Positions 180 through 62,958 of a DNA stretch of 64,000 nucleotides are shown one piece after another. Below the pieces are notes generated by a model. It worked only from the letters and a program-made list of their open reading frames with translations, was not told the DNA's origin and ran no database searches. The translations under genes and the position numbers were made by a program. The DNA lies in NCBI GenBank assembly GCA_963851265.1, contig CAWKNZ010000002.1:192001-256000 (forward strand), read 5' to 3'. The DNA comes from an uncultured Gemmatimonadales bacterium. GTDB taxonomy: Bacteria; Gemmatimonadota; Gemmatimonadetes; Gemmatimonadales; Gemmatimonadaceae. Numbering within the stretch: position 1 is the first letter of the stretch; the number at the start of each line of letters is the position of its first letter.

Positions 180-2240
180 TCAGGCCGGGGGGACGCGCTG
201 GGCGAGGTCGGCCGCGCGCGGGTCGCCGGGGGCGGCGCGCCGGAGTGCGCCGAGCGCCGCGCGCGCCTTGTCGTACTGCTCCAGCAGCGTGTACGCGACG
301 GCGAGGTTGTAGAGCCGCGTCGCGTCCGCCGTCGCACTCGTGATGCCGGGCGCCCGCCCCGATTCGAGGATCGGGAGCGCGCGGGCGGCGGTGACGGTGA
401 GCGCGGCCTTCCGATCGTCCGGCGCAAGCTGCGCGGCGCGCGCGAGGGCCGCGAGCGCGGCGGTCCGGTCGCCGGCCTGGAGCGCGAGCAGCCCCGCGAG
501 CCGGAACCCTTCGGGGGTCTCGCGCCGCGCGTTCGCGCGCTGCGCGTACGCGAGCGCCTCGGTGGGGCGGTGCGCGGCCGCCGCCAGTTGCGCGGCGTCG
601 AGCCACGGCTGTGGCGAGTACCGGAACTCCTGCGCCATCACGCGCGACACGGCGAGGGCGCGCGTCGTGTCGCCGGCGCGCGCGTATTGCAGGCGCAGCG
701 CGTCCGTGGCCGGCGCCCACTGCGTCTGGCCCAACACGAGCGCGCGCGCGAGCGCCTCGACCTGCGTGCGCGGCCGGAGCGTGTCGACGGCCGGGATCAC
801 GACCGCGCCGCGCGGCTGGAAGGGCCAGCCCGACACCAGGCGGTCGGTGCGGAGTGCGCCCACGGCCGAATCGACCGCCGTCACCGGGACGTCGGCGACG
901 GCCGGCGCGGCCGCCGGCGCACTCGCGGGCAGGCCGCGGGCGCGCAGCGCGTCGTAGAACGCGCGGGCGATGGTCGCGTAGCCGTCGACGTTCGGGTGCA
1001 GGTGTTCGAGGATGAGCGAGTGCCCGGGGATGCCGCCCGGCGAGGCGCGTTCGACGGCGGCCTGCGATTCGACGACCGTGGCGCCGTGCGCGGCGGCCTG
1101 CTCGCGGATCACCGCGTTCAGGGCTTCGGGCGCGCGGAAGCGCAGCTCATCGTCCTCCTTGGCGGCGCGGTACTCCGGGCGTGCGCCCGTCGTGTCGCCT
1201 CGCGCCTCGAGCAGCCGGGCGAGCGCGTAGTGGGCGTCGGCGCGGCCTGCGTCGATGGCGAGCGACGCGCGGACCGCGCGCTCCGACGCCGCCGTGTCGC
1301 CCCGGCGGAGCGCGGCTACGGCGGCGTCGGCGCTGCGCTGCCAGGCCGCCGTGTCGCTGCCGGGGGTGAACCCGCTGACGAACGGCGGCTGGTCGCGTTC
1401 GTTGCTGACGAGCGTGCCGACGAACACCGGGACCCCCGCGGCCTGGTACTTCGCGAGGAGCGCGCCGAGGTTGGCGCGGAACTGCGCGACCCCCGCCGCG
1501 TACCGGGCGGAGCCTAACGCGACGTGCTGGTCGCCCGCCATCAGCGCCATCACCGACCGCGGCGCGTCGGCGGGGCCGCCGGTCGGCCCGTCCGGCGGCC
1601 CGCCCGCCCCGCGCACGCCGCCGAGCGCGTTCTCCACGAGCTGCACGAGCCGCAGGTGGCGCAGGGCGAGGTACGCGCGCACGAGCGCGGGCGAGCGGCC
1701 GAGCGGTCCGGCCGCGCCGGCGCCGAACACGCCGTAGTACTCGTTGTGCCCCGTGTAGATGAGCACCGCGTCGGGGTGCTCGGCGAGGATGGCGTCGGCC
1801 TGGTCGAGCAGGACGTAGGAGCTGACGGCCGTGAAGGCGGTGTTCACCACCTCGACGCCGCGGCCCGGGACGTCGCGCTGCAGCCACGCCTCGAGGATGC
1901 GCGACGGCGCCGCGCCGTGGAGGTAGGGGAACCCTTCCGCGGAGCTCTCTCCCTGGAAGAAGACGCGGAAGGTCCCGGCCGGCTTCGCGGCGCGGAAGAA
2001 GTCGGTGTGGGGCGTGGGGACGAAGGCGCCGCGGAAGTACCGCCGGGCCGCGTCGGGGTTGCTGAAGCGGTAGTCCGGTTGCGGCCCGTACGCGCTGAAG
2101 AGCGGGTAGTCGCCGCCGTACCCGCCGGCGCGCAGCCCGAGCTCGAGCAGCGCCAGGAGCAGCCACGGGAGGGCGAGCGTGAGGACGACGAGGAGCGCGC
2201 GCTGGCGGGGGCTCGGCAGGGCGGCGACGGCCGCGGACAT
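180..2240 (-). CDS. Membrane-anchored SGNH/GDSL-hydrolase-like protein with C-terminal TPR-like repeats
   Basis: ATG at 2240 (MSAAVAAL). N-terminal TM helix, blocks QGESSAEG, YTGHNE and EHLHP, then Ala-rich TPR-like helices. Confidence 0.8.
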   Translation of the reverse strand: MSAAVAALPSPRQRALLVVLTLALPWLLLALLELGLRAGGYGGDYPLFSAYGPQPDYRFSNPDAARRYFRGAFVPTPHTDFFRAAKPAGTFRVFFQGESSAEGFPYLHGAAPSRILEAWLQRDVPGRGVEVVNTAFTAVSSYVLLDQADAILAEHPDAVLIYTGHNEYYGVFGAGAAGPLGRSPALVRAYLALRHLRLVQLVENALGGVRGAGGPPDGPTGGPADAPRSVMALMAGDQHVALGSARYAAGVAQFRANLGALLAKYQAAGVPVFVGTLVSNERDQPPFVSGFTPGSDTAAWQRSADAAVAALRRGDTAASERAVRASLAIDAGRADAHYALARLLEARGDTTGARPEYRAAKEDDELRFRAPEALNAVIREQAAAHGATVVESQAAVERASPGGIPGHSLILEHLHPNVDGYATIARAFYDALRARGLPASAPAAAPAVADVPVTAVDSAVGALRTDRLVSGWPFQPRGAVVIPAVDTLRPRTQVEALARALVLGQTQWAPATDALRLQYARAGDTTRALAVSRVMAQEFRYSPQPWLDAAQLAAAAHRPTEALAYAQRANARRETPEGFRLAGLLALQAGDRTAALAALARAAQLAPDDRKAALTVTAARALPILESGRAPGITSATADATRLYNLAVAYTLLEQYDKARAALGALRRAAPGDPRAADLAQRVPPA

Positions 2241-2443
2241 CGACGAACGGGAGCGGCGTAGCGGAGGGGCGGGACGCCGCGGGCACGCGCCCGCGGGGGA
2301 GCCGCAAGCTAACGCCGCCCCGGGCGTGACGGTCGTCGTGTCGGCGTGTTGATTGGCTGCGGACGGCAGTTCCCGGTTCGGCCACCCCGTGCCGAGCGGG
2401 TGCGGCCGCGCACACCCTCTCGCGCGCACACCATCTCGGGCGA

Positions 2444-5350
2444 ATGCCGAATCGAGCCACGCGCCTCCGCGCCACGCGCGCACGGGCCCTGTCCGCGGCC
2501 TCCGCGCTCCTCGCGACCCTCGCCGGCGCGGCGGCGCCGTCCGCGGCGCGCGCACAGCAGCCGGCCGCCGCGCCCCGCGCCGACACGGTCCCCCTCCCCG
2601 AGCACCCGCGCCCCGACTTCATGCGCGCGGAGTGGGTGAACCTGAACGGCCGCTGGCAGTTCGCGTTCGACCGGGCCGACGCGGGGGTGCGCGACGGCTG
2701 GTACCGGCCTAACGGACCCATGCCCGCGGCGCACCGCGTGCTCGTGCCGTTCTCGTGGGCCGCGCCCGCGTCGGGGGTCGGGGCCGACAGCGCGGACGTG
2801 GGCTGGTACGCGCGGAGCGTGACCGTGCCGGCCGCGTGGCGCGGGCGGCGCGTGTTCCTCGTCGTCGGCGCGTCGGACTGGCGCACGTCGGCGTGGCTCG
2901 ACGGCGAATCGCTCGGCACGCACGAGGGCGGCTACACGCCGTTCTCGATGGAGCTGACGCGCCACGCGCGCGCCGGCGACGCGCAGCGCCTCGTGCTGCG
3001 GGTGGACGACGCGCCGCGCCCCTTCCGGCTCGACGGCAAGCAGGGCTACGGCAACGTGCGCGGGCCGTGGCAGACCGTGTACCTCGAGGCGCGCGGCGAC
3101 GCGCCGCTCGAGTGGGTGCACTTCACCCCCGACGTGGCGAACGGCCGCGTGGCGGTCGAGGCGAAGCTGCTGGAGCCCGCGCCGCGCGCGCTCACCTTCT
3201 CGCTGGCCTTCCGCGACACGAGCGTGCGCGCCGTGTCGCGCCCCGTCGCGCGCGGCGCGACCACGGTGCGCTTCGAGGTCCCGGTCCCCCGCGCGCGGCT
3301 CTGGCGGCCCGAGGACCCGTACCTGTACGAAGCGACGGCCACGTTAGGCGCGCCCGGGGTGGCCGCGGACCGCGTCGAGACGTATTTCGGGATGCGCACC
3401 GTCTCGGTGGTGGACCTGCCGGGGACCAACATCCCCTACGTCGCGCTCAACGGGAAGCCGCTGTACCTGGAACTCGCGCTCGACCAGGCGTACCACCCGA
3501 CCGGGTACTACACCTTCCCCACCGACAGCGTGCTGCGCGACGAGATCCTGCGCGCGCGGCAGATCGGGCTCACGGGGCTGCGCGAGCACATCAAGATCGA
3601 GGCGCCCCGCAAGCTCTACTGGGCCGACCGGCTGGGCGTGCTCATCATGGCCGACGTGCCCAACTGGTGGGGCCCGCCCGACTCGGCCGCCTTCCGCGGG
3701 CACGAGGCGGCGATGCGCGGGATGATCGCCCGCGACTACAACCACCCGAGCGTGTTCGCGTGGATCCCGTTCAACGAGTCGTGGGGGCTCACCACGCAGG
3801 TCGCGGGGAAGGGCGTGTACCTCCCCGAGACGCAGGCCAAGGTGTCGAGCGTGCAGCAGCTCGCGAAGCGCCTCGACCCGACCCGCCTCGTCGAGGACCA
3901 GTCGCCGTGCTGCGGCCGCTGGCACACGACCACCGACCTCAACTCGTGGCACGAGTACCTGCCCGGCTGGAAGTGGGCGTCGTACATGGACCGGGTGAGC
4001 GACAGCACGTTTCGGGGCTCGCCGTGGCACTTCCTCGGCGGCAGGCGACAGGCCGGGCAGCCGATGATGAACTCGGAATTCGGCAACGTCTGGGGCTACG
4101 AGGGGAGTACGGGCGACGTCGACTGGAGCTGGGACTACCACCGCGCGATCGACGCGTTCCGGCGGCACCCGAAGCTCGCGGGGTGGCTCTACACCGAGCA
4201 CTCGGACGTGATCAACGAGTGGAACGGGTACTGGCGTTTCGACCGCTCGCCGAAGGAGACGGGGGTCGGCGACCTCGTGCCGGGGATGACGCTCGCCGAC
4301 TTCCACGCGCCGCTCTACGTGGCGGTGGGCGACTCGGAGCTGGCGCGCACCGCGCGCGCGGGGGAGCGCGTCTCGGTGCCGCTCTACGCCTCGTTCCTGT
4401 CCGGCACCGCGGCGTACGGCGACTCGCTCGTGCTGCGCACCGAGCTGTGGGGGTGGAACGCGTTGGGCGAGCGCAAGGTGTGGGCGACGTCCGCGCGGCG
4501 CGTGCCCTACCGCCCGTGGATGAGCGCCCCGCTCGCGCCGCTCGAGGTGACGATGCCGGACGAGCCCGCGGTGGCGGTGCTCGCCACGCGGCTGGAGGAC
4601 GCGAGCGGCACGGTGCTGCACCACAACTTCGCGACCTACGTGGTCGAGGGGGCGGCCCCGTCGTCCGCGACGCTCGCCGACGGGCGCCGCGTGCGCGTGG
4701 CGAGCGTGCCGGCCGCGCAACTCGCCGGCGGGCGGTGGTCGCAGAAGCAGTGGCCGGTGATGGGCGGGCTCAAGATGGACGGCGCGGGGAGCGGCTACTT
4801 CGAGTACCGCATCCCGTGGCCCGCCGGGCTCGCGGCGGCGGATGTGGCCGGGGCGACGTTCCTCGTCGAGGCGTCGAGCAAGCGGCTGTTGGGCAAGGAC
4901 CGCGACAGCACGGTGCGCGGCGACGGCGACTACATGCGCGGCGGCGGGCTGCAGGACCCGGGCAAGAACCCCAACGCCTACCCGATGACGGGCACCGCGA
5001 AGTGGCCGAGCGCGGTGACGGTGCGCGCGAACGGGGTGGACGCGGGGCGGGTGGAGCTCGCGGACGACCCGGCCGACAGCCGCGGGGTGCTCAGCTGGCA
5101 CGCGCAGCTGCACGACGGGCACCTGCACGAGGCCGGGTCGTACGGGCAGCTCGTGCGCGTGGCGCTGCCGCCCGAGGCGGTGGCGCGGGCGGCCCGGGAG
5201 GGCGCGGTGACCGTGCGGCTGGAGGTGGACGAGGCGCTGCCGGGCGGGCTGGCGATCTACGGCCGGCAGTTCGGTCGGTACCCGGTGGACCCGACGGTGC
5301 TCTTCGTGTTGCGCGACGGCGCGGCGGCGCGGACGGCCGGCGCACGATGA
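2444..5350 (+). CDS. Secreted glycoside hydrolase family 2
   Basis: Signal peptide (ARA-QQ); P.HPRP..R.EW.NLNG.W.F, HEGGYTPF, RDYNHPSV..W.PFNESWG and SEFG motifs. Confidence 0.88.
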   Translation: MPNRATRLRATRARALSAASALLATLAGAAAPSAARAQQPAAAPRADTVPLPEHPRPDFMRAEWVNLNGRWQFAFDRADAGVRDGWYRPNGPMPAAHRVLVPFSWAAPASGVGADSADVGWYARSVTVPAAWRGRRVFLVVGASDWRTSAWLDGESLGTHEGGYTPFSMELTRHARAGDAQRLVLRVDDAPRPFRLDGKQGYGNVRGPWQTVYLEARGDAPLEWVHFTPDVANGRVAVEAKLLEPAPRALTFSLAFRDTSVRAVSRPVARGATTVRFEVPVPRARLWRPEDPYLYEATATLGAPGVAADRVETYFGMRTVSVVDLPGTNIPYVALNGKPLYLELALDQAYHPTGYYTFPTDSVLRDEILRARQIGLTGLREHIKIEAPRKLYWADRLGVLIMADVPNWWGPPDSAAFRGHEAAMRGMIARDYNHPSVFAWIPFNESWGLTTQVAGKGVYLPETQAKVSSVQQLAKRLDPTRLVEDQSPCCGRWHTTTDLNSWHEYLPGWKWASYMDRVSDSTFRGSPWHFLGGRRQAGQPMMNSEFGNVWGYEGSTGDVDWSWDYHRAIDAFRRHPKLAGWLYTEHSDVINEWNGYWRFDRSPKETGVGDLVPGMTLADFHAPLYVAVGDSELARTARAGERVSVPLYASFLSGTAAYGDSLVLRTELWGWNALGERKVWATSARRVPYRPWMSAPLAPLEVTMPDEPAVAVLATRLEDASGTVLHHNFATYVVEGAAPSSATLADGRRVRVASVPAAQLAGGRWSQKQWPVMGGLKMDGAGSGYFEYRIPWPAGLAAADVAGATFLVEASSKRLLGKDRDSTVRGDGDYMRGGGLQDPGKNPNAYPMTGTAKWPSAVTVRANGVDAGRVELADDPADSRGVLSWHAQLHDGHLHEAGSYGQLVRVALPPEAVARAAREGAVTVRLEVDEALPGGLAIYGRQFGRYPVDPTVLFVLRDGAAARTAGAR

Positions 5351-6834
5351 CGCGGCCGGCGCGGGTCGGGGGCGGTGCGGTCGGGGCCGTGCTGGCCGCG
5401 GCGCTCCTCGGTACGCCCGGCCCCGCCCCGGCGCAGGGAGCGCCGCCCGGGGCGGCGCCGCCCGCGCCGCGCTACGCCGCGACCTGGGCCTCGCTCGACG
5501 GCCGCCCGGTGCCGGCGTGGTACGACAGCGCCAAGTTCGGGATCTTCATTCACTGGGGCGTCTACTCGGTCCCCGCGTGGGCCCCGACGGGACCGGACGT
5601 GCCGGTGTACGAGAAATATGCGGAGTGGTACGAACGGCGCGTGCGCGAGGACAGCGCGCGGGGCGGGCCGTTCTGGCGCTTCCACGCGCGCGTGTACGGC
5701 GCGGGCACGCCGTACGCGGCGTTCGCGCCGCAGTTCCGGGCCGAGCTGTGGGACGCGGGCGAGTGGGCCGAGCTGTTCGCACGCAGCGGGGCGCGGTACG
5801 TGGTGCTCACCTCGAAGCACCACGACGGCTTCGCGCTCTGGCCGAGCGCGGAGAGCCCGGGGTGGAACAGCGCGGCCGTGGGGCCGCGGCGCGACGTCGC
5901 CGGCGAGCTCGCGGCCGCCGTGCGCGCGCGCGGCCTGCGGATGGGCTTCTACTACTCGCTCTACGAGTGGTACCACCCGCTCTACACGGCCGACACCACT
6001 GCGGCCGGCGCGGCCCGGCTGCGGCGCTACGTCGACGCGCACATGCTCCCGCAGCTGCGCGACCTCGTGACGCGATACTGCCCCGCGGTGCTCTGGACCG
6101 ACGGCGAGTGGGAGCACCCGAGCGCCGCGTGGCGGAGCCCCGAGTTCCTCGCCTGGCTCTTCAACGAGGGGCCTAACGGCGCCGAGGTCGTCGTGAACGA
6201 CCGCTGGGGCGCGGAGACGCGCGGCCGCCACGGCGGCTTCTACACGAGCGAGTACGCCGTCGAGAAGTTGCCGTCCGGCGACGGCGGCGCGGCGGTGCAC
6301 AAGTGGGAGGAGACGCGCGGCGTCGGGGGCTCGTTCGGCTACAACCGCGCCGAAGCGTTGGGCGACTACCGCACGGGGCGCGAACTCGTGCACCTGCTGG
6401 TCGAGACGGTGGCGCGCGGCGGCAACCTGCTGCTCGACGTGGGCCCGACGGCGGACGGCCGCGTGCCGGTGGTCATGCAGCAGCGGCTGGCCGACGTGGG
6501 CGGCTGGCTGCGGACCAACGGCGAGGCGATCTACGGCACGCGGCGCTGGCGCGTGAGCGCCGACACGGGGGCGGGGGTGGGCGGCGGGGCGCCCGCGGTG
6601 CGCTACACCGCGCGCGGCGACACCGTGTACGCCGTCGCGCTCGAGTACCCGGCGGGGGAGCTGGTGCTCGCGGCACCGCGCGCGGGTCCTGGCGCGGCGG
6701 TGTCGCTCGTCGGGTACGGCGGGCCGCTCCGCTGGCGCGTCGAGGGCGGCCGGCTCCGGGTGGCGGTGCCCGCGCTTTCGCCCGACGGCCCGCTGCGGCA
6801 CGCGTACGTCTTCCGGCTCACGGGGGTCTCGTGA
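5347..6834 (+). CDS. Alpha-L-fucosidase (GH29)
   Basis: ATGA overlap with the GH2 stop; KFGIFIHWG.YSVP, TSKHHDGF.LW, LWTDG, VVNDRW, GGNLLL.VGP and NGEAIYGT motifs. Confidence 0.93.
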   Translation: MTRPARVGGGAVGAVLAAALLGTPGPAPAQGAPPGAAPPAPRYAATWASLDGRPVPAWYDSAKFGIFIHWGVYSVPAWAPTGPDVPVYEKYAEWYERRVREDSARGGPFWRFHARVYGAGTPYAAFAPQFRAELWDAGEWAELFARSGARYVVLTSKHHDGFALWPSAESPGWNSAAVGPRRDVAGELAAAVRARGLRMGFYYSLYEWYHPLYTADTTAAGAARLRRYVDAHMLPQLRDLVTRYCPAVLWTDGEWEHPSAAWRSPEFLAWLFNEGPNGAEVVVNDRWGAETRGRHGGFYTSEYAVEKLPSGDGGAAVHKWEETRGVGGSFGYNRAEALGDYRTGRELVHLLVETVARGGNLLLDVGPTADGRVPVVMQQRLADVGGWLRTNGEAIYGTRRWRVSADTGAGVGGGAPAVRYTARGDTVYAVALEYPAGELVLAAPRAGPGAAVSLVGYGGPLRWRVEGGRLRVAVPALSPDGPLRHAYVFRLTGVS

Positions 6835-6883
6835 GCGCGCCGCGCGCAACGTTGTTTTCCGTCCCACGTCCGGAGTGTGCCTC

Positions 6884-8926
6884 GTGAATCGACGCCGTTT
6901 CGTTCAGTCCGCGGCGGCCGGCCTCGCGGCCGCCGCGCTCCCCGGCGTCGCGGAGGCCGCCGGCACGGCCGGAGCGCCCGGCACCGCCGGGGCGCCCGGC
7001 GTCGCCGGCGTCCACTTCGGCCGCGCCCCGCTCGCCGCGGTACCCTACGCGCCGCTTCCGTTAGGCGCGGTGCGCGCCCGCGGCTGGCTCGCCGAACAGC
7101 TCCGGCTGATGGCCGACGGCCTCGCCGGCCACCTCGACGAGCGCTACCCGCTCGTCGGCCCCGACAACGCCTGGCTGGGCGGCGCGGGCGACACGTGGGA
7201 ACGCGGCCCGTACTGGCTCGACGGGCTCGTCCCCCTCGCGCACACGCTCGGCGACGAGGACGGCGCGCGGCGCGCGGCGCTGGTCGCCAAGGCGCGGCCG
7301 TGGGTCGAGCACGCGCTCGCCTCGCAGCGCGCCGACGGCTACTTCGGCCCGCCGGACGACGCCGGACGCGGGCGCGACGCCGACGGCGTGCAGCGCGCGA
7401 ACTCCGCCGACTGGTGGCCGCGGATGGTGATGCTCAAGGTGCTCCAGCAGCACCACGAGGCCGCCGGCGACCCGCGCGTGCCGCCGTTCATGGCGCGCTA
7501 CTTCGCGTACCAGCGCGCGCGGCTGCCCGAGACGCCGCTGAATCACTGGACGCAGTGGGCGCAGCACCGCGGCGGGGAGAACCAGGCGAGTGCGCTCTGG
7601 CTCTACGACCGCACGGGCGACCCCGCGCTGCTCGACCTCGCGCGGCTGCTGCAGGCGCAGACCTCCGACTGGACGGACGGCTTCGCGCACGAGCAGCCGC
7701 CGTCGACGCACGGCGTGAACGTGGCGATGGGCGTGAAGCAGCCCGCGGTGGCCTACCTGCTCGACGGCGACCCGCACCGGCTGGACGCCGTAGACCGCGG
7801 GCTCGCGTTCCTCCGGCGCGACCACGGGCAGGTGACCGGGATGTTCTCGGGGGACGAGCCGCTGCACGGCACCGACCCGCTGCAGGGCACCGAGCTGTGC
7901 ACGGTCGTCGAGCTGATGTTCTCGCTCGAGACGCTCGTGCGCGTGACGGGGGGCGTGGCGCACGCCGACCACCTGGAGCGCGTCGCCTACAACGCGCTGC
8001 CCGCGCAGGTCATGCGCGACTACACCGCGCGGCAGTACTACCAGCAGCCCAACCAGGTGGTGGTGGACCGCGACGACAGTCACTACGTGCAGCAGCACGA
8101 CGGCACCTCGCAGCTCATGGGGCTGCTCACCGGCTACCCGTGCTGCACGGTGAACATGCACCAGGGGTGGCCGAAGTTCGTGCACGCGCTGTGGCTCGCG
8201 AGCCGCGACGGCGGGCTCGCGGCGATGACGTACGGGCCGAGCGTGGCGCGCGTGACCGTGGGCGGGGTGCCGGTCGAGGTGGAGCAGGCGACGGCCTACC
8301 CGTTCGAGGACGACGTGCGCGTGGTGGTGCGCCCGGCGCGGCCGGTCGCCTTTCCGCTGCACCTGCGGGTGCCGGCGTGGGCGGAGGGGGCGTCGGTGCG
8401 GGTGAACGGCGCGCCGGGGCCGGAGGCGGTGCCGGGGCGCGTGGTGCGGGTGGCGCGCACGTGGCGGGCGGGCGACGTGGTCCAGCTGCGGCTGCCGGCA
8501 CGCGTGCGGACGAGCGCGTGGCACAAGGGGCTCGCCGGCGTGGAGCGCGGGCCGCTCGTCTACGCGCTGCCGGTGGGCGAGGACTGGCGGCGGATCGGCG
8601 AGCAGGGGGGCGTGCCGACCTACGAGGTGCACCCGACGACGCCGTGGAACTACGCGCTGGTCGCGGGCGCGCCGATGCGCGTCGAGCGGCCCGCGCCTAA
8701 CGGGCGGCCGGGTGCGGTGCCGCTGCGGCCGTGGACGGCCGCGGCCGCGCCGCTCGCGGTGGTGGCCGCGGGGCGGCGGGTGCCCGGGTGGCGGCGCTAC
8801 GCGTCCGTGGACGGCACGCTGCCGTACAGCCCCGTCGCGACGGCCGAGCCCGCGGAGGCGTTGCGGCTGGTGCCGTACGGGTGCACGACGCTGCGGCTGT
8901 CGGAGTTCCCGGTGGCCGCGGGCTAG
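6884..8926 (+). CDS. Tat-exported beta-L-arabinofuranosidase-like protein (GH127/GH146)
   Basis: GTG after GGAG; twin-arginine NRRRFV; WERGPYW.DG, HGVN, ELCTVVE, LER.AYNALP and YPCC motifs. Confidence 0.85.
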   Translation: MNRRRFVQSAAAGLAAAALPGVAEAAGTAGAPGTAGAPGVAGVHFGRAPLAAVPYAPLPLGAVRARGWLAEQLRLMADGLAGHLDERYPLVGPDNAWLGGAGDTWERGPYWLDGLVPLAHTLGDEDGARRAALVAKARPWVEHALASQRADGYFGPPDDAGRGRDADGVQRANSADWWPRMVMLKVLQQHHEAAGDPRVPPFMARYFAYQRARLPETPLNHWTQWAQHRGGENQASALWLYDRTGDPALLDLARLLQAQTSDWTDGFAHEQPPSTHGVNVAMGVKQPAVAYLLDGDPHRLDAVDRGLAFLRRDHGQVTGMFSGDEPLHGTDPLQGTELCTVVELMFSLETLVRVTGGVAHADHLERVAYNALPAQVMRDYTARQYYQQPNQVVVDRDDSHYVQQHDGTSQLMGLLTGYPCCTVNMHQGWPKFVHALWLASRDGGLAAMTYGPSVARVTVGGVPVEVEQATAYPFEDDVRVVVRPARPVAFPLHLRVPAWAEGASVRVNGAPGPEAVPGRVVRVARTWRAGDVVQLRLPARVRTSAWHKGLAGVERGPLVYALPVGEDWRRIGEQGGVPTYEVHPTTPWNYALVAGAPMRVERPAPNGRPGAVPLRPWTAAAAPLAVVAAGRRVPGWRRYASVDGTLPYSPVATAEPAEALRLVPYGCTTLRLSEFPVAAG

Positions 8927-17015: not shown

Positions 17016-17053
17016 CGCGCGGCACCCGTTAGACGCACGCGGCGCGCGCCGGC

Positions 17054-29678: not shown

Positions 29679-30852
<1,174 letters not shown>

Positions 30853-30856
<4 letters not shown>

Positions 30857-37422: not shown

Positions 37423-37490
37423 CGCCTAACGGTACGCGTCGTGAGGGCGCCCGACGTCAGGCCGTCCCCGCGGTCGGCCGGTCCCCGCGG

Positions 37491-40404: not shown

Positions 40405-40430
40405 ACCGTGTAAGCTGCCGTGACCGGCGG

Positions 40431-45222: not shown

Positions 45223-45232
45223 GGACTTCGCC

Positions 45233-49548: not shown

Positions 49549-50022
49549 ATGCCCGTCCTCACGTTAGGCCGCCGCGCGCTCGGGGCCGCGGCCGCCCTGT
49601 CCACCGCGGCCGCGGCGCTGCCCGGCGCCGCCGCGACCGCCCACGCCCAGCCGCGCGGCGCGCAGCTGCTCTACGAGTGGCAGGGGCGCGTCGACCACGA
49701 GGTGCAGATCTTTCCGGGGCGCGGCGGCTTCGACGTGCGCGGCATCGGCGGCGCCGAGAACCCGGGCCGATTCCGAAACACCGGCGGCCCGCCGCGCGGG
49801 TCGGGGCAGATCAGCGTCCAGCGCCTCAGCGGCCGCGGCCCCGTCGACGTGCTCGGCAGCAACGTCGTGCGCATCCGCGACCCGCAAGGCGGGGCGGACT
49901 TCTACCGCATCCGCGTGTACTGGCAGCCCAGCGGCGGGCAGTACGGGCGCGGCGACGGCGACGGCCGGAACGACCGCGGCCGCGACGACCGCCGCGGGCG
50001 CGACGACCGCCGGCCGTTCTGA
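49549..50022 (+). CDS. Secreted hypothetical protein
   Basis: GGAG RBS; signal peptide AHA-Q; EWQGRVD...IRDPQGGADFY...W domain; RD-rich tail. Confidence 0.7.
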   Translation: MPVLTLGRRALGAAAALSTAAAALPGAAATAHAQPRGAQLLYEWQGRVDHEVQIFPGRGGFDVRGIGGAENPGRFRNTGGPPRGSGQISVQRLSGRGPVDVLGSNVVRIRDPQGGADFYRIRVYWQPSGGQYGRGDGDGRNDRGRDDRRGRDDRRPF

Positions 50023-51484: not shown

Positions 51485-51648
51485 CCGTCCCATCCCCCCG
51501 TCCGCCAACCCGGCGGCGCCTCGCGTTAGACCCCCGACGCCGGCCCCGGCCCGGGTGACGGCGGCGGTCGCACCCGCGGCCGCCGCGCGCGCCCACGTGC
51601 GCAGGGCGTGCGCCATCAGCCCCGCGCGACGTCGGGGCGCACGCCCGG

Positions 51649-52849: not shown

Positions 52850-52855
52850 CGCGGC

Positions 52856-54307
52856 CTAACGCGTCGCCGGCACCGCGTCCGCCGCGTCGGGCCCGGCCGG
52901 GGCGAACACGTTCCCCCGGCCGAGGATCCCCTGCGGGTCGAGCGCCCGCTTGAGCGCACCCATCGCGGCGAGTTGCGCCGGTGTCAGCTGCAACGGCAGC
53001 CACCGGCGCTTCAGCTTGCCGACGCCGTGCTCCGCGGCCACCGTGCCCCCCATCGCGAGCACGCGCCGCAACGTCGCGTCCACCACCGCCTCGATCCGCT
53101 CCAGCTCCGCCGCGTCGCGCGCGACGAAGTGCTGGTGCGGGTGGCCGTTGCCGGCGTGACCGAACACCGCCGCCACCTCGACCCCGTGCGCGGCCGCGAT
53201 CGACGCCGACTCGCCTAACGCCTCGGCGAGCCGCGGGTAGGGCACCGCCCAGTCGGTCGACACCTTGCGCCCGCCGGCCGGCCGGTAGCGCGCCGCGCGC
53301 TCGTTGAGCGTGGCCGGCACGGCGTGCCGCATGCCGCGCGCGTTGCGCAGCGGCCCCTCGCCCTCGAACACCTGCACGTCGTCGGCGAGCACGCCGTGCC
53401 GCTCGGCCAGCTCCAGCCACGCGTCGAGCGCGGCCTCGCCCGCGTGCTCCTCCTCGAGGTACACGTACGCCGCCGCGCCCTCCCCCCACGAACCACCGAA
53501 CAGGCCGCGCGCATGGTCGCGGGCGATCGTGAACGCCCGCGCGTCGAGGTACTCCAGACAGCGCGGGTTGAGCCGCCCCGCGTCACGCAGCGCCCGCGCC
53601 TCCGCGACGAAGGCGAGCGCGCCGGACTCGGTGCGGAACGGGACGCCGAGGCCCGTCACGGCGTCGGGGAGCGGCAGGAGTGAGAACTCGACGTCGAGCA
53701 CCACGCCCAGCGTCCCCTCGCTCCCGACGAACCAGTCCACCGGGTCGTGTGCCATCGCGTAGCCCGCGGTGTTCTTTTCGAGCCGCGGCCGGCGGAACTC
53801 GTGCACCGAGCCGTCGGCGAGGGCGACCCGGAGCGCCGCGACGTGCTCGCGCGTGGCGCCGTACTTGAGCGACCGCCCGCCGCTCGCGTTCGCCGCCACC
53901 GCGCCCCCCACGGAGCATTCCTCCTCGCTCGTCGGGTCGGGGGCGAGGAGGAAGCCCGCCGCGGCGGCGGCACGCTTCACGTCGCCGAGCAGCGCGCCCG
54001 GCTCCGCGCGGATCGTGCGGCGCGCGGGGTCCAGGTCGAGAATCCGGTCCATCGCCCGCAGCGAGAGCACCGCTCCGCGGTCCGTCACCGCCCCGCCCGA
54101 GTACCCCGTGAGCGCCCCCGCCGGCGTCACCGCGGTCCCCGTCGCTGAGGCGGCGCGCAGCACCTCGACCACCTCCGCGGCCGACGTCGGCCGTGCCACC
54201 GCTTCGGGGGTGAGCACGAGGCCCGACGCGTCGGCGGCGAACGCGGTGCGCACGCCGAGGTCGTCGGTGGAGTAGGGGAGGGCGGGCGCTGGCGCGAGGA
54301 GGGACAT
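52856..54307 (-). CDS. FAD-linked oxidase (GlcD/D-lactate dehydrogenase family)
   Basis: PDPTS...SVGG.VA.NASG, GSEGTLG, GHAGNG.PH, AEHGVG..K and K.ALDP.GIL motifs. Confidence 0.9.
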   Translation of the reverse strand: MSLLAPAPALPYSTDDLGVRTAFAADASGLVLTPEAVARPTSAAEVVEVLRAASATGTAVTPAGALTGYSGGAVTDRGAVLSLRAMDRILDLDPARRTIRAEPGALLGDVKRAAAAAGFLLAPDPTSEEECSVGGAVAANASGGRSLKYGATREHVAALRVALADGSVHEFRRPRLEKNTAGYAMAHDPVDWFVGSEGTLGVVLDVEFSLLPLPDAVTGLGVPFRTESGALAFVAEARALRDAGRLNPRCLEYLDARAFTIARDHARGLFGGSWGEGAAAYVYLEEEHAGEAALDAWLELAERHGVLADDVQVFEGEGPLRNARGMRHAVPATLNERAARYRPAGGRKVSTDWAVPYPRLAEALGESASIAAAHGVEVAAVFGHAGNGHPHQHFVARDAAELERIEAVVDATLRRVLAMGGTVAAEHGVGKLKRRWLPLQLTPAQLAAMGALKRALDPQGILGRGNVFAPAGPDAADAVPATR

Positions 54308-55772: not shown

Positions 55773-56684
55773 CTAGATGCTGAAGTCCTCCACCCCGTCC
55801 CACCCCCCCGCCCGCGGCGCCACCTGACTCTGGTGCGTCACCACACTGCCCGCCGGCACGCTCCGCGTCAGCCAGACGTTCCCCCCGATCACGCTCCCCT
55901 CCCCCACCACCGTCTCCCCCCCGAGGATCGTCGCGTTCGCGTACACCACGACGTCGTCCCCCAACGTCGGGTGCCGCTTGACCCTCGCCAGATGCTTCGC
56001 CACCGCGAGCGCGCCTAACGTCACGCCCTGGTACAGCCGCACGCGGTCGCCCAGCACGGCCGTCTCGCCGATCACCACCCCCGTCCCGTGGTCGATCGCG
56101 AACGCGCGCCCGATCTGCGCCCCCGGGTGAATGTCGATTCCCGTCTCGCGGTGCGCGAACTCCGTGACGAGCCGCGGCACGAGGGGAACCTCGTGGCGGT
56201 GGAGGACGTGGGCGATCCGGTAGCACGCCGTCGCGTAGAACCCGGGGTACGCCGCGATCACCTCGTCCACGCTCGCCGCCGCCGGGTCGCCGTCGTGCGT
56301 GGCGCGCGCGTCGGCGAGGAGCGCGTCGTACACGGCCGGCAGTTCCGACACCGCGGCCGCCTCGAGCGACTCCGCCGGACGGCCGAGGATCGCGGCGACC
56401 GGCTCGAGCACCACCCGAAGCGCGCGGCGCACCGCCGCGAGTTCGTCGCCCATCTCGCGCGCCGCGCAGGGCGCCCCGCACGCGGGGCCCATCTCGCGGT
56501 CCGGCAGCTCGTTGGCGAGCGGCGGAAAGAGGAGGGCGAGCAGCGCGCGCACCGCGTGCTCCGTGTTCGCCCGCAGGCGCGGCGGGAGCGCGAACGCCTC
56601 CCGAGCGGCCGCGAGCCGCGTCAGGAATGCGAGTTGGGACGGGGCCGCGTCGGGCGGCGCGAGGTCGGGCGCGTGGTGGGACAC
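55773..56684 (-). CDS. cysE: Serine O-acetyltransferase (EpsC-type)
   Basis: [42 protein letters not shown] and KRHPT motifs. Start approximate. Confidence 0.92.
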
Positions 56685-56742: not shown

Positions 56743-58593
56743 TCAGGCCGCGAGCGCGCTTCTCGGCGGACGGTGCGCCGGCGGCAGCGCGACGTCCCGC
56801 GCCAACCACGGTCGCGGCAGCCCGACGTCCGCGCGCAGCAGTTCGATCGCCGCGTCCGCCGCCATCGGCCGCCCGAACAGGAAGCCCTGCACCACGTCGC
56901 ACGCGCGCTCGGAGAGGTAGGCCAGCTGTTCCGGCGTCTCCACCCCTTCGGCCACCACTTCGAGCCCGAGCGAGTGGCCGAGCGCGATGATCGCCTCGGT
57001 GATCGCGCCGCTCTGCCGGTCGGTGACCGCGTCGCGCACGAAGCTCTTGTCGAGCTTGATGCAGTCGATCGGGAAGCGCTTCAGGTAGCCGAGCGAGGAG
57101 TAGCCGGTGCCGAAGTCGTCGAGCGCGATGCCGACGCCGGCGCCGCGGAGCCCCTGCAGCACCGCGACCGTGTGCGCGGTGTCGTCCATGAGCAGCGACT
57201 CGGTGACTTCGAGTTCGAGCAGTGCGGGGTCGACGTCGTGGTCGGCGAGCGCGGCGTGCACCACCGAGACGAGGTCGGCGTGCTTGAACTGGCGCGCGGA
57301 GAGGTTGACCGCCACCGCCGCGAGCGGCAGCCCCTCCGCGCGCCACGCGGCGAGCTGCGCGCACGCGGTGCGCAGCACCCACTCGCCGATCGGCACGATG
57401 AGCCCCGTCGACTCCGCCACCGGGATGAAGTCGACCGGCGAGACGAGTCCGCGGTCGGGGTGCTGCCAGCGGAGGAGTGCCTCGAAGCCGCGCACGCGCC
57501 CCGTCGCGACGTCCATCTTCGGCTGGTAGTGCAGGAACAGCTGTCCGCGGTCGAGCGCGTGGCGCAGGTCGGCCTCGATCGCCATGCGCAGGTGCAGCCG
57601 CGCGTTGAGGTCGGACGAGTAGAAGCGGTGCGCGTTGCCGCCCGCGCCCTGCACGGCGTAGAGCGCCGTGGTCGCGTTGCCGATCAGCTCGTCGACGCCG
57701 CCGGGGTCGTTGGGCGAGGTGGTCACGCCGACGCTCGCGCCGACGGTGACCTCGCGCCCGTGGACGACGAACGGGCGGCGGAGCGCGTCGACCACGCGGC
57801 GCGCGAGCGCGTCGAGTCCCTCGACGGTCGCGCCGTCGGCGCAGAGGATGGCGTACTCGTCCCCGTCGAACCGCGCGAGCACGTCGGTGCCGCGGACCAC
57901 GCCCTGCAGGCGCTGCGCGGCCGCGGCGAGCAGCGCGTCGCCGCCCGCGTGGCCTAACGACAGGTTGATCGCCTGGAAGCCGTCGAGGTCGAGCACGAGC
58001 ACGCCGACCGCGCGGCCGTCGCGGCGCGACTGGGCGAGGGCGTGCCGCAGCTGGTCGCGGAAGAGCGCGCGGTTGGGCAGCCCGGTGACGCGGTCGTACG
58101 TCGACACGTGGCCGACGATCTCCTCGAGGCGCTCGACCGCGTGCTGCGCGTCGGCCATGAGCGCGCCGGCCTCGTCGACCTCGGCGAACTCGGCGGGGAG
58201 TGCGGGCGCGGTGCGGCGCGCCAGGTAGGCGCGCAGCGCGGCCGCCGTGAGCGTCACCGGCGCGAGCAGGGCGCCGACCAGCCAGGCCGCCCCGGCGGCG
58301 CCGACGAGGCCGCCCACCGCGGCAGCGGCGAGTGCGGCGCGTGCCACCACGCTCGCCGCGTGCGGCGCGGGAGTGCCGATCCACCCCGGCGCCGCGCCGC
58401 CCACCAGGCGGACGACGCACGCGACCGCGACCGCCGGAACGACCGCGCCGAGCGCGGCGGCGGTCATCAGCTTGGCGCGGTAGCTCGCGCGGCCCGCGGC
58501 GCGCACCCACGACGGCCCGGACGTGCTGCGCGGCGCGCAGATCCGGCGCGCCGCGCGGGCGAGCGTGACGTAGGCGTGCAAGGAGGGAGGCAT
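56743..58593 (-). CDS. Membrane-anchored GGDEF(degenerate)-EAL protein
   Basis: Two TM helices; [50 protein letters not shown] and QGFL motifs. Confidence 0.92.
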
Positions 58594-58937: not shown

Positions 58938-59005
58938 GCGGGCGCGGCCGCGGCCGCACCCGCGCGCCGCCCGCCGCGGCTGCGCGGTCCGACGTCCGAG
59001 GCTGA

Positions 59006-60583
59006 CTAACGTTCCAGCTTGAAGCCCGCGTCGACGGCCGGCCGCGCGTCGCGCTCGGCGACGGCCCAGCCGGTCGCGTACATCCAGCGCGCCATCCGCG
59101 TGAGCTTGGCGTAGTCGATGCGCGACGGTTCGTCCCGGACCGTGTGATAGTCCGGGTGCAGGAGCGTGGTGAACATCACCGCGGGCACGCCGAGGCGCGC
59201 GTAAGGCAGGTGGTCGCTGCGGAAGTACCAGCCTTCGGGGTGCGACGGGCGGTCCCAGGCGGAGTCGAGCGCGAAGTGGCCGACCATCCGGTTCGCGGCG
59301 AGCGCGATCGCGACGAGGTCGGAGGAGTTGCGGTGCGGCGGTTGCGCGCCGAGGAGCGCCGCCGAGTCGGGGCTGTTGCGGCCGATCATGTCGCCGTTGA
59401 GCACGGCGACCATCGACGCGCGCGGTACCGTGGGGTGTGCCGAGAACCAGCGCGAGCCTAACAGGCCGCGCTCCTCCGCGCCGTGCCAGACGAAGAGCGC
59501 CGAGCGGCGCCCGGGGTGCTGCACGAAGGCGCGCCCCGCGGCGAGGATCGCGACGTCGACGCTCGCGTTGTCGTCGGCGCCGTTGCTGATGCTGTCGAGG
59601 CGCCCGCCGCCCACGTCGATGGGCGTGCGCACGCCGTCGTGGTCGTGGTGCCCGCTGAACACGACGTACTCGTGGCGAAGGCGCGGGTCGCGCCCGGGCG
59701 CGACCGCGACGACGTTCGCGCTCGGGTACACGAAGCTCTCGGCGACGAGCGACAGCGCGAGCCGGCCGCCCGCGGCCGCCGCGCCGCGGAGCCCCGGCCC
59801 CGCCGCCGCGCGCACCCAGAGCACCGGCGCGCCCGTCGGGATCGCGGCCGCGCCGGTCGTGTCGACGTTGTACCGCCCGCGGAGCAGCCCGGCGCCGCCG
59901 AAGGCCCACCCGGCCTCAGCGGTCGAGTCCCCGACGAGCACGATCGCGGCCGCGCCGCGGCGCACGAGGGCGGTGCTCTGCTCGCGGATCGCGGCGAGCA
60001 CGTAGCGGAACGGCCGCAGGCTCACGCCCTCGGGAGGGAGCGCGCGCGGCGCGTGCATCTCGACGACCACGGCGCGGCCGCGCACGTCGCTCGTGCTGTC
60101 GCCCGCGGCGAGTGCGACGAGCGGCAGCTCGCCGCGAAACTCGACGGGAGCGGCGGGCACGACGTCGCGGTCCCACGCGAGCGGGGCGCCGCCGGCGACG
60201 CCGACGGTGCTCCGCTCCGGGACGAGGCGCACGCGCCGCATGGGCCACCACTGGAAGTAGGTGCCGTCGTCACCGGCGGGTTTGAGGCCGGCTTCGCGGG
60301 CGCGCTCGGCAGTCCACACGGCGGCGCGCAGCTCGTCGAGGGTCCCGGCCTCGCGGCCGCGCATCGAGTCCCCGGCCATCGCGTAGAGGTCGCGCCGGAG
60401 GTCCGATTCGCGGATCGCGCCGAGCGCGGGGGGGAGGGCGGCAGCGGACTGCGCCGCAGAGACTGCGGGGCGCGAGGCGACCAGCGACACGGCGGCGAGC
60501 GTCGCGACGGCGAGCCGCGCGACGGCGCGTGTCGCGACGGCGCGGGTCGCGACCGAGGCGCGGGGGAGGGCGGAGCGGAACAT
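59006..60583 (-). CDS. Secreted M28 family peptidase
   Basis: Signal peptide; M.GR.AGT, SGHHDH.G, NGADDNAS, AEE.GLLGS, N.DMIG, RSDH and DYH motifs. Confidence 0.92.
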   Translation of the reverse strand: MFRSALPRASVATRAVATRAVARLAVATLAAVSLVASRPAVSAAQSAAALPPALGAIRESDLRRDLYAMAGDSMRGREAGTLDELRAAVWTAERAREAGLKPAGDDGTYFQWWPMRRVRLVPERSTVGVAGGAPLAWDRDVVPAAPVEFRGELPLVALAAGDSTSDVRGRAVVVEMHAPRALPPEGVSLRPFRYVLAAIREQSTALVRRGAAAIVLVGDSTAEAGWAFGGAGLLRGRYNVDTTGAAAIPTGAPVLWVRAAAGPGLRGAAAAGGRLALSLVAESFVYPSANVVAVAPGRDPRLRHEYVVFSGHHDHDGVRTPIDVGGGRLDSISNGADDNASVDVAILAAGRAFVQHPGRRSALFVWHGAEERGLLGSRWFSAHPTVPRASMVAVLNGDMIGRNSPDSAALLGAQPPHRNSSDLVAIALAANRMVGHFALDSAWDRPSHPEGWYFRSDHLPYARLGVPAVMFTTLLHPDYHTVRDEPSRIDYAKLTRMARWMYATGWAVAERDARPAVDAGFKLER

Positions 60584-61003
60584 GATCGATGACGGAGGGG
60601 ACGCGTGCGGCCGTCGCGCGGGACGTGCTCGCGGGCCGGACCTACGGGAGATAACGGGAGATGCAACGAAGGGGAGGGCGGGGCGCTACGCGCGACCATC
60701 CCGGTCGTCGCGCCCGCGTCGTCCGCCCCGCACGTCCCGCCGCGACTCGTTAGGCACTCGGCGGGCGTCGGGAGAGGCGGCCCGGTCCGCGTCCGCGGCG
60801 CCCGCACGCGCGATCGTGCGGCGCCGTCGCGTTCCCCGACTGTGCAACACCGAATCTGCCAGCGTCCAGCCCCGCCGGCCCGGCCCTGGGGTGTCTTCCG
60901 GTCCCGCGCGTTTCTCCAGAATGAAGACACGAGCCCGGTCGCGCGGGTCGCAGCTCCCAGACAACTCGGCACGAGTCCGTCGCGCCTCCACTACCTTCCG
61001 ACC

Positions 61004-61834: not shown

Positions 61835-61893
61835 CCCCGGGCGCCGCCGTACCGGGCGCGGAGGCCCGCCGGGGGAGGCGACTCTCGCCTCGC

Positions 61894-62958
61894 GTGCGGT
61901 TCGCGCTCTCCGCGGCCGCGTGGCTCGCCGGCACGGCGCTCGTCGTCCTCGCGCTCCGCGCCGTCGGATGGTCGGCGGCGATCGCCGCGGTCCGCCGCGC
62001 CCACCCACTCTGGCTCGCGCTGGCCGTGTGTTGCCACGGCTCGATCGTCTTCCTGTGGGCGTGGCAGACGTATGTGCTCCTGCCGCGCGGCGCCGACGGG
62101 CGCGCCGCGCCCGCGGCCGACGGCAGCCGCGTCACGTACGCGCGCTGCGCCGAGGTGCAGGCCCTCACTGCGACCGCGTCCAACACCGTGCCCGCCTTCC
62201 TCGGGCAGGCGACCGGCGTGGCGCTCCTCTCCGAGCGCGCCGGGATCGGCACCGCGGGCGCGCTCTCGGTGTTCGCGCAGCACAACCTCGTCGAGGGCTT
62301 CGCGAAGATCGGCGTGCTGTTCGCGGCGGCGCAGGTCGCCCCGCTGCCGCACTGGATGCGGGAGGCGCTCGTCGCGCTCGCGGGCGGGATGGTGCTGCTC
62401 ACCGCCGCGCTCGGCACCGCCGCCTGGTACGCGCGGCAGCACACGGCGCGGGCGGCCGCCTCGGGCGGCGCGCCCGTGCCTAACATCCCGCCCGAGGCCG
62501 ACCGGCGGCGCCGCGACCCGCTCGCCCGCTTCCGCGCCTTCGTGGTGAGTTGGGCGGCCACGCTCGACGCGCTCCGGCACCCGGGGCAGCTCGCGGCCGC
62601 GTTGGCGCTCGCCGCGTCCATGAAGCTCGCCGAGGCGGGCGGGTGGTGGGCCATCGAGCGCGCGTTCGACGTCGCGCCGCGGCGCGGCAGTCCGATCCTC
62701 GCGCTCGCGGCGACCAACCTCGCCTCCGCGATTCCGGCCTCCCCCGGCAACCTCGGCGTGTACGAAGGGGCCGCGTTCTCCGCGTACCACCTCCTGCTCG
62801 GGGTGCCGCGCGAGACGGCGATCGCGCTCGCCCTGCTGGGGCACGTGTGCTACCTCATTCCGCTCGTCGGGATCGGGTGGGCCATTCTGTCGGTGCGCCA
62901 GCTTGTCGCGTTCCGCGCCCGGCGCCACGGCCGCGCAGGCGCGCGGCCCACGCCTTGA
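61894..62958 (+). CDS. Lysylphosphatidylglycerol synthase TM / flippase-like membrane protein
   Basis: Multiple TM segments; N.VP..LG and IP.SPG.LG.YE motifs. Confidence 0.8.
   Translation: MRFALSAAAWLAGTALVVLALRAVGWSAAIAAVRRAHPLWLALAVCCHGSIVFLWAWQTYVLLPRGADGRAAPAADGSRVTYARCAEVQALTATASNTVPAFLGQATGVALLSERAGIGTAGALSVFAQHNLVEGFAKIGVLFAAAQVAPLPHWMREALVALAGGMVLLTAALGTAAWYARQHTARAAASGGAPVPNIPPEADRRRRDPLARFRAFVVSWAATLDALRHPGQLAAALALAASMKLAEAGGWWAIERAFDVAPRRGSPILALAATNLASAIPASPGNLGVYEGAAFSAYHLLLGVPRETAIALALLGHVCYLIPLVGIGWAILSVRQLVAFRARRHGRAGARPTP

Follow-up and report, generated by a model that had tools for sequence, protein, structure and literature searches.

A hyper-abundant word with the spelling of the integron attC core is maintained as a strand-symmetric DNA signal in Gemmatimonadales

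Among the described systems closest to the word reported here are the uptake signal sequences (USS) of Pasteurellaceae and the DNA uptake sequences (DUS) of Neisseriaceae. To our knowledge, only two proteobacterial families have been documented to take up DNA in a sequence-specific way, and we know of no receptor for the USS. Like the word described below, USS and DUS are short and exact, occur in more than 1000 copies at about one per 1-3 kb, lie on both strands and show no replication polarity; they sit mostly in genes, in the least costly reading frames and with some 3' intergenic excess, are kept against codon bias, turn over between related species and are spaced somewhat more evenly than chance. 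Another such word is the octamer HIP1 (GCGATCGC) of cyanobacteria, whose function, as far as we know, has stayed unknown for decades. As described in excerpts of PMC5861425, HIP1 resembles our word in being a hyper-abundant octamer that is conserved beyond expectation, patchily distributed and of unknown function. A third relevant system is the attC site of integrons, defined by an RYYYAAC inverse core and a GTTRRRY core (excerpts of PMC3053210 and PMC8061329). Here we describe the octamer GCCTAACR ("the word") in a 64,000-nucleotide window, positions 192001-256000 of contig C2 in the 4.60-Mb, 12-contig assembly (73-74% G+C) of an uncultured Gemmatimonadales soil bacterium of the family Gemmatimonadaceae (GCA_963851265.1, referred to as G000), and in its relatives. 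We are confident that it is a positively maintained, strand-symmetric DNA signal, and judged by its letters its spelling is that of the attC core, an identity that is new here.

The word occurs 29 times in the window (71-76% G+C), with 16 copies on the + strand and 13 on the - strand, 25 ending in G and four in A. An earlier reading of the window from its letters alone (the sequence-only reading) had listed these same copies with their strand balance and the five near-matches, judged them far above chance, placed every CTAA or TTAG in the motif core and known of no description of the motif, and each of these points is borne out. In 100 dinucleotide-preserving shuffles the word appeared 1.30 times on average (standard deviation 1.13, maximum 5), and none reached 29. 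There are 34 CTAA/TTAG tetramers in the window, 29 of them inside the 7-mer GCCTAAC, and the remaining five (2309, 17029, 51526, 59006 and 63307) all retain CTAACG, as AGCTAACG, GACTAACG and, three times, GTCTAACG. Our literature searches found no published description of the word, the string matches listed being primer or construct uses, and nothing relevant on gemmatimonad uptake sequences or methylome tables.

Genome-wide, GCCTAACG occurs 688 times on the + strand and 708 times on the - strand of G000 (1396 copies, about one per three kb), and it is the most over-represented 8-mer, at 27.8 times the 50.2 copies expected from an order-2 Markov model. The variants GCCTAACA, GCCTAACC and GCCTAACT number 243, 69 and 54, respectively, and the 7-mer GCCTAAC accounts for 1762 of a total of 2470 CTAA tetramers. 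The base that precedes GCCTAAC is C in.54 of copies, T in.22, G in.19 and A in.05, and the base that follows is G in.79 and A in.14. Base frequencies within ±20 nt of the G000 copies revealed no conservation beyond these two flanking bases, and the 292 intergenic copies have the same flank preferences as the others. More exactly, the word has the fuller form B-GCCTAAC-R, with ~1400 copies per genome.

Several observations indicate that the constraint acts on DNA. Our gene calls, made with our own simple codon-score caller and crude, especially at gene starts, comprise 3703 genes in G000 (87% coding). Among the 1762 7-mers, 993 are read as xxG-TTA-GGC (Leu-Gly), 195 as xxG-CCT-AAC (Pro-Asn), 111 as a GCC-TAA stop, 77 as an xGT-TAG stop, 71 as xGC-CTA-ACx and 23 as GTT-AGG-C, and 292 are intergenic. 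The G|TTA|GGC context holds 993 of the 1276 in-frame TTA codons (78%), so that the word distorts the codon statistics of this genome. TTA makes up 27% of Leu codons (780/2867) in the context xCG-Leu-GGC vs 0.3% (47/14154) in the control context xCG-Leu-G.., and the same shift takes TTG from 1.9% to 8.9% and CTG from 13.7% to 5.6%. When synonymous codons were permuted inside each gene, leaving the protein and the per-gene codon counts unchanged, 20 shuffles gave a mean of 40.1 copies in coding sequence (largest 23+34), compared with 1028 observed, a 26-fold excess. The full word is written at 16.7% of [SPTA]-L-G sites (780/4676) and, on the opposite strand, at 21.1% of x-P-N-[VADEG] sites (166/786). 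The Pro-Asn dipeptide occurs at 1.17 times expectation, and since Pro-Asp does likewise (1.21 times) we make no claim of an amino-acid drive. Between convergent genes there are 1.07 intergenic copies per kb vs 0.35 between divergent genes, and the 292 intergenic copies of G000 have no orientation bias. Because of the context bias of TTA, the similar rates in both orientations and the copies in stop codons and intergenic DNA, we conclude that the word is a signal at the level of DNA and acts on neither protein nor RNA.

The 29 copies in the window comprise 19 xxG-TTA-GGC (Leu-Gly) and six xxG-CCT-AAC (Pro-Asn) readings, one GCC-TAA stop, one CGT-TAG stop and two intergenic copies. They and the five near-variants are as follows, with the strand of each gene in brackets:
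1512..1519, + strand: GCCTAACG; gene 180-2240 (-), GCG TTA GGC, Ala-Leu-Gly
2707..2714, + strand: GCCTAACG; GH2-like gene 2444-5350 (+), CGG CCT AAC G, Arg-Pro-Asn
3342..3349, - strand: GCCTAACG; gene 2444-5350 (+), ACG TTA GGC
6171..6178, + strand: GCCTAACG; fucosidase gene 5389-6834 (+), GGG CCT AAC G
7059..7066, - strand: word copy; gene 6875-8926 (+), CCG TTA GGC
8695..8702, + strand: word copy; gene 6875-8926 (+), GCG CCT AAC G
10723..10730, + strand: word copy; gene 10148-11218 (+), GGG CCT AAC G
12396..12403, - strand: word copy; ABC ATPase gene 11231-12808 (+), ACG TTA GGC
14249..14256, - strand: word copy; FGGY kinase gene 12805-14643 (+), GCG TTA GGC
14925..14932, - strand: word copy; aldolase gene 14645-15358 (+), GCG TTA GGC
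18979..18986, + strand: word copy; Sua5/TsaC gene 18580-19638 (-), GCG TTA GGC
23204..23211, - strand: GCCTAACA variant; gene 22804-24213 (+), CTG TTA GGC
25561..25568, - strand: word copy; GH3 gene 24243-26585 (+), TCG TTA GGC
29050..29057, - strand: word copy; permease gene 28836-29678 (+), TCG TTA GGC
30851..30858, - strand: word copy; GCC-TAA stop of histidine kinase gene 30853-32337 (-), at a convergent-gene junction
31510..31517, + strand: GCCTAACA variant; gene 30853-32337 (-), CTG TTA GGC
37329..37336, + strand: word copy; CheR-PAS gene 35425-37422 (+), CTG CCT AAC G
37424..37431, + strand: word copy; intergenic, right behind the stop of gene 35425-37422
48393..48400, - strand: word copy; AcrB-family gene 45233-48652 (+), CCG TTA GGC
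49214..49221, - strand: word copy; gene 48649-49404 (+), GCG TTA GGC
49562..49569, - strand: word copy; gene 49549-50022 (+), ACG TTA GGC
50753..50760, + strand: word copy; gene 50123-51484 (-), CCG TTA GGC
52854..52861, + strand: word copy; CGT-TAG stop of gene 52856-54307 (-)
53213..53220, + strand: word copy; gene 52856-54307 (-), GCG TTA GGC
56013..56020, + strand: word copy; gene 55773-56684 (-), ACG TTA GGC
57952..57959, + strand: word copy; GGDEF-EAL gene 56743-58581 (-), TCG TTA GGC
59456..59463, + strand: GCCTAACA variant; gene 59006-60583 (-), CTG TTA GGC
60748..60755, - strand: word copy; intergenic by our gene calls
62478..62485, + strand: GCCTAACA variant; gene 61894-62958 (+), GTG CCT AAC A
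2307..2314, + strand: near-variant AGCTAACG, one mismatch
17027..17034, - strand: near-variant GTCTAACG, read as CGTTAGAC on the + strand
51524..51531, - strand: near-variant GTCTAACG, read as CGTTAGAC on the + strand
59004..59011, + strand: near-variant GACTAACG
63305..63312, + strand: near-variant GTCTAACG

The word is also held in place over evolutionary time. We compared G000 with 400 kb of its congener G004, of which ~197 kb aligns at 84% identity. Of 54 copies in G000 and 72 in G004, 25 are common to the two aligned genomes, and the word therefore turns over between them; for all 8-mers pooled, 31.8% are identical. Where one of the two genomes lacks the word, it mostly carries a synonymous Leu codon instead (CGTTGGGC, CGCTCGGC). 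The TTA codon of the word is nevertheless retained in G004 at 28 of 51 sites. By comparison, codons ending in A or T are retained at 341 of 2974 sites (11.5%), TTG at 15 of 169 and CCT outside the word at two of 40, and codons ending in G or C at 36363 of 55143 (66%). Since the TTA of the word is retained more often than other rare codons, some force holds these codons, and the word is actively maintained at orthologous sites beyond codon expectation. The sequence-only reading had proposed that the constraint is genome-wide and falls on DNA, not protein, with TTA concentrated in the G-TTA-GGC context, strands balanced unlike those of Chi and KOPS, and synonymous conservation in orthologues as one way to check it. 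Loss of the enrichment under codon control was to count as its refutation, and the enrichment persisted; the TTA counts, the strand totals and the G004 alignment agree with the proposal too.

Replication polarity of the kind known for Chi and KOPS (FtsK-orienting polar sequences) is excluded. A dif-like site with the core ACATAA-CATATA-TTATAA lies at C2:1368947-1368976, where gene orientation switches, and is the probable replication terminus; an Xer-like gene (C2:1346667-1347503) lies ~20 kb away. About this site the leading strand has 254 copies of GCCTAACR and the lagging strand 331, a split that is close to that predicted from gene co-orientation (690/429 and 298/94) combined with the excess of Leu-Gly readings. 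We also considered the XerD arm as the role of the word and rejected it, as the dif-like site at C2:1368947 lacks GTTAGGC.

Gaps between copies in G000 are near-exponential (coefficient of variation, CV, 1.07), with 46 gaps below 200 bp where 130 are expected. In a 132-kb sample of G012, the densest genome sampled, the CV is 0.88 and seven gaps fall below 100 bp vs 20.7 expected; spacing in G004 is near random. The scarcity of close pairs suggests that each further copy in a region adds less. The longest word-free stretch of G000, 45 kb at C1:182876-227962, has normal G+C and holds mnmG, parA and mnmE. Exclusion of the word from the origin does not account for it, as the counterpart region carries copies in G004, G001, G299, G235 and G012 and the gap is specific to G000. 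This stretch is 78% identical to G004, against 84% elsewhere, and may be DNA imported from a word-poor lineage. That it is tolerated argues against an essential structural role for the word. No HK97-type capsid was found in G000, and hence no recognised prophage whose copies could be compared.

The nearest named relatives of a gene in the window come from MAGs of Gemmatimonadaceae or Gemmatimonadales. We next consider relatives, calling a genome word-rich if it holds at least twice as many copies of the word as of the reversed control word. Ten of 31 relatives, G000 included, are rich and the rest are depleted: the rich ones are all five genomes of G000's genus (727-2415 copies), G012, G008, G017, G018 and G030. 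G012 carries 6360 copies in 5.1 Mb at merely 63% G+C. Across the phylum, 12 of 301 genomes are rich, all in families f1 and f2, and none of 102 in nine other families, which maps the distribution that the sequence-only reading had asked about; these tallies take in the unpublished genome G011, and the 301-genome survey also G078, G117 and G198, all four word-poor and none of them the basis of a conclusion here. A single genus contains G235 (3896 copies), G292 (4141) and G288 (66), and density across genomes forms a continuum from 0.1 to 1.25 per kb. Rich and poor genomes interleave in at least three subclades of a quick single-gene MnmG tree (26 rows; 13 of 23 forks unresolved), and richness has therefore been gained or lost repeatedly; it is patchy and confined to Gemmatimonadales. 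The continuum and the interleaving fit a driver that comes and goes. The word also occurs in cultured Gemmatirosa kalamazoonensis KBS708, whose two megaplasmids contain the 7-mer 39 and 25 times, respectively, in their first 50 kb. Two candidates for a dialect word in poor relatives proved to be repeats: the top words of G005 belong to a 13-bp tandem repeat (GCGTAACTGARGA, G005:C1 ~8117-8222, L119; a second, inverted array lies ~4 kb away), and those of G288 to (GAAAGCA)n arrays. The latter occur as short inverted pairs of heptad arrays around GTGAAC-type cores (L172:612-691 and 5693-5807; L174:12644-13274; L177:14060-14184), recur on several contigs and look like a small dispersed repeat element.

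The complement of the word, GTTAGGC, is what we take to be the usual spelled-out example of the attC consensus, and GCCTAAC/GTTAGGC fits RYYYAAC/GTTRRRY, a match that had escaped the sequence-only reading. The flanks agree as well: the base after GTTAGGC is G, A, C and T in.55,.21,.20 and.04 of 56 pooled attC arms and in.54,.22,.19 and.05 of the 1762 G000 copies, and the base before it is C or T in both sets alike, in differing ratios. The word-poor relative G021 carries on contig C95 ~27 same-strand copies of CGTTAGGC at ~600-bp spacing, 22 of which pair with an upstream GCCTAAC across 72-136 nt to give hairpins that end in the two words; attC hairpins lie at 94-195, 665-767, 1310-1399 and onwards in G021:C95:1-24000. 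By this arrangement these are integron attC sites, and G021:C95 carries a sedentary integron cassette array. Similar clusters are present on G021:C43, G021:C80, G019:C3 and G029:C1, the array on G021:C80 adjoins an intI fragment, and most clustered copies in word-poor relatives are attC arms.

The copies in G000 differ from attC in their arrangement. An attC site consists of two cores paired across an imperfect palindrome of 57-141 bp, arrayed next to intI, whereas ~99% of the G000 copies are solitary, lying inside housekeeping genes without a partner arm or hairpin and away from intI. Only nine attC-like pairs are found in G000, involving at most 18 of the 1762 copies, and seven of them fold with their ends paired. 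Four attC-like hairpins within 15 kb of contig C10 (188936-189056, 194558-194654, 202950-203046 and 203674-203792), far from intI, are probably a small cassette cluster without an integrase, and another such hairpin lies at C6:1592-1708. The intI gene of G000, also on C6, is split into segments that match profile positions 2-265 and 260-313 (L142:5244-6044 and 3005-3166, - strand), ~2.1 kb apart, and the gap holds a large serine recombinase gene (L142:3558 onwards, + strand) with Resolvase, Recombinase and Zn_ribbon domains.

Our preferred reading, which we hold tentatively, is that the word is an uptake-sequence-like tag spread by transfer bias. Some component of a DNA-transfer route, most simply the uptake machinery of natural transformation, would prefer fragments that carry the word; word-bearing alleles would be imported and recombined more often, and the word would accumulate wherever the protein permits, in Leu-Gly and Pro-Asn sites, stop codons and 3' intergenic DNA. 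The force that maintains the word overrides codon preference and acts on both strands equally. We infer the uptake bias, the competence and the reader protein alike. We rank this reading first because it would account for the strand symmetry, the cheap frames and 3' placement, the combination of turnover with maintenance, the deficit of close pairs and the toleration of a 45-kb gap, and because its driver could disappear from a lineage. ComEC, searched in G000, is encoded there, and the ComEA-type HHH_3 domain is present in all 41 genomes screened (21 rich and 20 poor, the set used for the reader screens below unless stated); uptake genes such as these also occur in many non-competent bacteria.

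Several points weigh against an uptake tag. We found no uptake or competence data for this phylum in the literature. ComP_DUS (PF16732), the sole known receptor family, matches G000 weakly, with a best E of 0.07 that is below the cut-off. ComEA occurs in rich and poor genomes alike, with no distinguishing gene content, and none of the genes tested tracks richness: IntI, RecC, C5 methylase, PF01555, ComEA and the Eco57I-like enzyme are each universal or unrelated to it. Unlike USS and DUS, the word belongs to a different phylum and is patchy within a genus; its poor lineages have no replacement dialect, no dispersed dialect word having been found in G005, G010 and G288, in contrast to Neisseriaceae. 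The inverted word pairs that form terminators in those systems are rare in G000. Of 1853 sites that could take the frame xGC-CTA-ACG only 61 do, one-fifth of the usage of the two main frames, even though CTA is commoner than TTA elsewhere; a purely DNA-level drive does not explain this underuse. GTT-AGG-C is filled at 23 of 3440. Finally, uptake alone does not explain the match to the integron core. A more specific version strikes us as quite unlikely: an uptake or self tag would have evolved a third time, independently and in a new phylum, with the attC core as its specificity, and rich Gemmatimonadaceae would preferentially import both their own DNA and integron gene cassettes of the community. 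If true, it would physically couple natural transformation to cassette capture.

An uptake tag, if that is what the word is, would imply preferential import of integron cassettes by these bacteria, and a role for uptake would link transformation to integron cassette traffic in soil. With a comparable word in a different phylum, a cultured carrier strain (KBS708), rich/poor contrasts within one genus and an unexpected identity with the integron core, the writers and readers of such words become testable. It also provides a sharp marker by which these genomes can be binned and DNA imported into them recognised.

The alternative that survives best, though we regard it as somewhat unlikely, is a HIP1-like signal within the cell, that is, a recognition site of a resident chromosomal protein (modification, repair or nucleoid) that is selected for that function. 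The word shares its very high abundance, its conservation above codon expectation and its patchiness among genera with HIP1 as described in the excerpts of PMC5861425; HIP1 differs in being palindromic with methylase sites, whereas our word is asymmetric and no methylase that tracks it was found. In the densest genomes the copies are spaced more evenly than chance would give, and on the KBS708 megaplasmids they are as dense as on chromosomes; both would suit a resident protein. Eco57I/MmeI-type enzymes read short asymmetric words, and a concrete candidate reader is an intact adenine methyltransferase of this type (G000 C7:582086-585511, L216:1498-4923, - strand; 1141 aa) with the motifs DPACGSGAFL and NPPW. 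This ~1100-aa enzyme is encoded once in each of the 41 Gemmatimonadales genomes searched, with comparable identities in the rich and the poor ones (40-58% outside the genus), and its presence cannot explain richness because it is a family-wide core gene; such conservation is itself unusual for a normally mobile enzyme type. PF02384 genes in G000 are fragmented only. The toleration of 45 kb without a copy counts against a resident reader, and we know of no protein that requires a word of this kind.

A role for integrons beyond shared spelling is unlikely in our view. In this reading the integron integrase, or a protein related to it, would recognise the solitary words, which might serve it as landing or binding sites all over the genome and would owe their spread to integron activity. 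The fit to RYYYAAC/GTTRRRY (excerpts of PMC3053210 and PMC8061329), the near-identical flanks after GTTAGGC, the clustered copies in poor relatives that are mostly attC arms, with 22 foldable sites on G021:C95 by themselves, and the commonness of integron integrases in the order all point this way. IntI above the curated cut-off, however, has no association with richness: 14 of the 22 rich genomes have it, and so do 24 of the 38 others. The gene is frameshifted in G012, the densest genome, where no other intI was found, carries a stop in G001 and is split in G000, and the paucity of attC-like pairs in G000 also speaks against integrase action. There is no known route by which IntI could produce solitary cores in genes or promote them. 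Genomic integron insertion sites require only GWT in the published work as excerpted (bioRxiv 10.1101/2022.09.11.507474). We also looked for cassette insertion at solitary words and rejected it as a general process: in 29 indels between G000 and G004, ~5 have a copy within ~40 nt of a boundary, so that indel boundaries are not clearly tied to the word. One case is suggestive of such an insertion. A 0.75-kb insert at G004:C1:1000496-1000531 (L096 ~496-531; empty site at G000:C2:279866) terminates in a perfect hairpin with a 14-bp stem, which the word and its complement form and which directly adjoins the solitary copy found at the corresponding place in G000. The translation of this insert has a putative PIN/VapC-like N-terminal motif.

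That the word is a Chi-like signal for an AddAB/AdnAB-type helicase-nuclease, non-polar through a predominance of two-ended breaks in a desiccation-exposed soil bacterium, appears to us very unlikely. Like Chi, KOPS and AIMS (architecture imparting sequences), it is an 8-mer of similar copy number per genome, and copies per Mb are similar to those of E. coli Chi; two adjacent PD-(D/E)XK helicase-nuclease genes, AddAB/AdnAB-like and a possible reader, lie at G000 C3:244574-251614. Leu-Gly sites are also converted slightly more often in the locally dominant gene orientation (138/792 vs 39/332). Those octamers are polar, however, and the word has no replication skew beyond that of gene orientation (254 vs 331). 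RecC, which occurs in seven of the 41 genomes, is missing from G000 and from all but two of the 21 rich ones, and no alpha-type AddB was found in G000. Moreover, known Chi words use common codons, whereas this one uses the rarest, at high cost for a signal to which another spelling was available.

We consider it highly improbable that the word is a by-product of sequence-biased mutation, or of very-short-patch (VSP) repair, tied to a methyltransferase. The one-step neighbour GCCCAACG, which contains a TTG codon, is 2.2-fold enriched and GCCTAACA is the commonest variant, and both can be read as mutational neighbours; the remaining one-mismatch neighbours are not consistently depleted. Reaching TTA from CTC or CTG takes two or three directed changes, and a single-base repair bias cannot build an 8-mer, nor is a deficit of close pairs expected from independent mutation at each site. 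Unlike in the Dcm/Vsr system of VSP repair, no cognate C5 methylase goes with the word: PF00145 gave no match in G000 and two partial matches among the 21 rich genomes, leaving 19 without any, and occurs in seven of 20 poor ones. PF01555 methylases are present in 11 of 21 rich genomes, with none found in the other 10, and in 11 of 20 poor genomes; G000 has no match. A D12-class methylase was found in one of five rich genomes searched. Of the kinds of signal offered by the sequence-only reading, the analogy to uptake sequences and HIP1 thus fits best and a nucleoid-protein site is possible, but the methyltransferase-linked mutational product is disfavoured.

A translational device, in which the rare TTA before GGC slows ribosomes or gives control by tRNA-Leu(UAA), can be dismissed as having almost no probability: 78% of TTA codons do lie in one context and all five tRNA-Leu species, tRNA-Leu(UAA) included, are encoded in G000, but CCT-AAC, the reading from the other strand, fills about as large a share of its compatible sites, stop-codon and intergenic copies share the same flanks without orientation bias, and strand symmetry contradicts it.

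Two further features of the sequence lie apart from these questions. At 33440-39117 the window contains two CheB-methylesterase genes and the CheR-PAS gene, in a region of lower G+C (0.71-0.74) where the word is sparse; around these CheB/CheR genes there is no copy at 31517-37329 and none at 37431-48393. Against a maximal-order Markov model, the most over-represented 7-mers of G000 are forms of AGNGCT, AGCGNCT and AAGCGCT, and these over-represented near-forms hint that AGCGCT itself is avoided.

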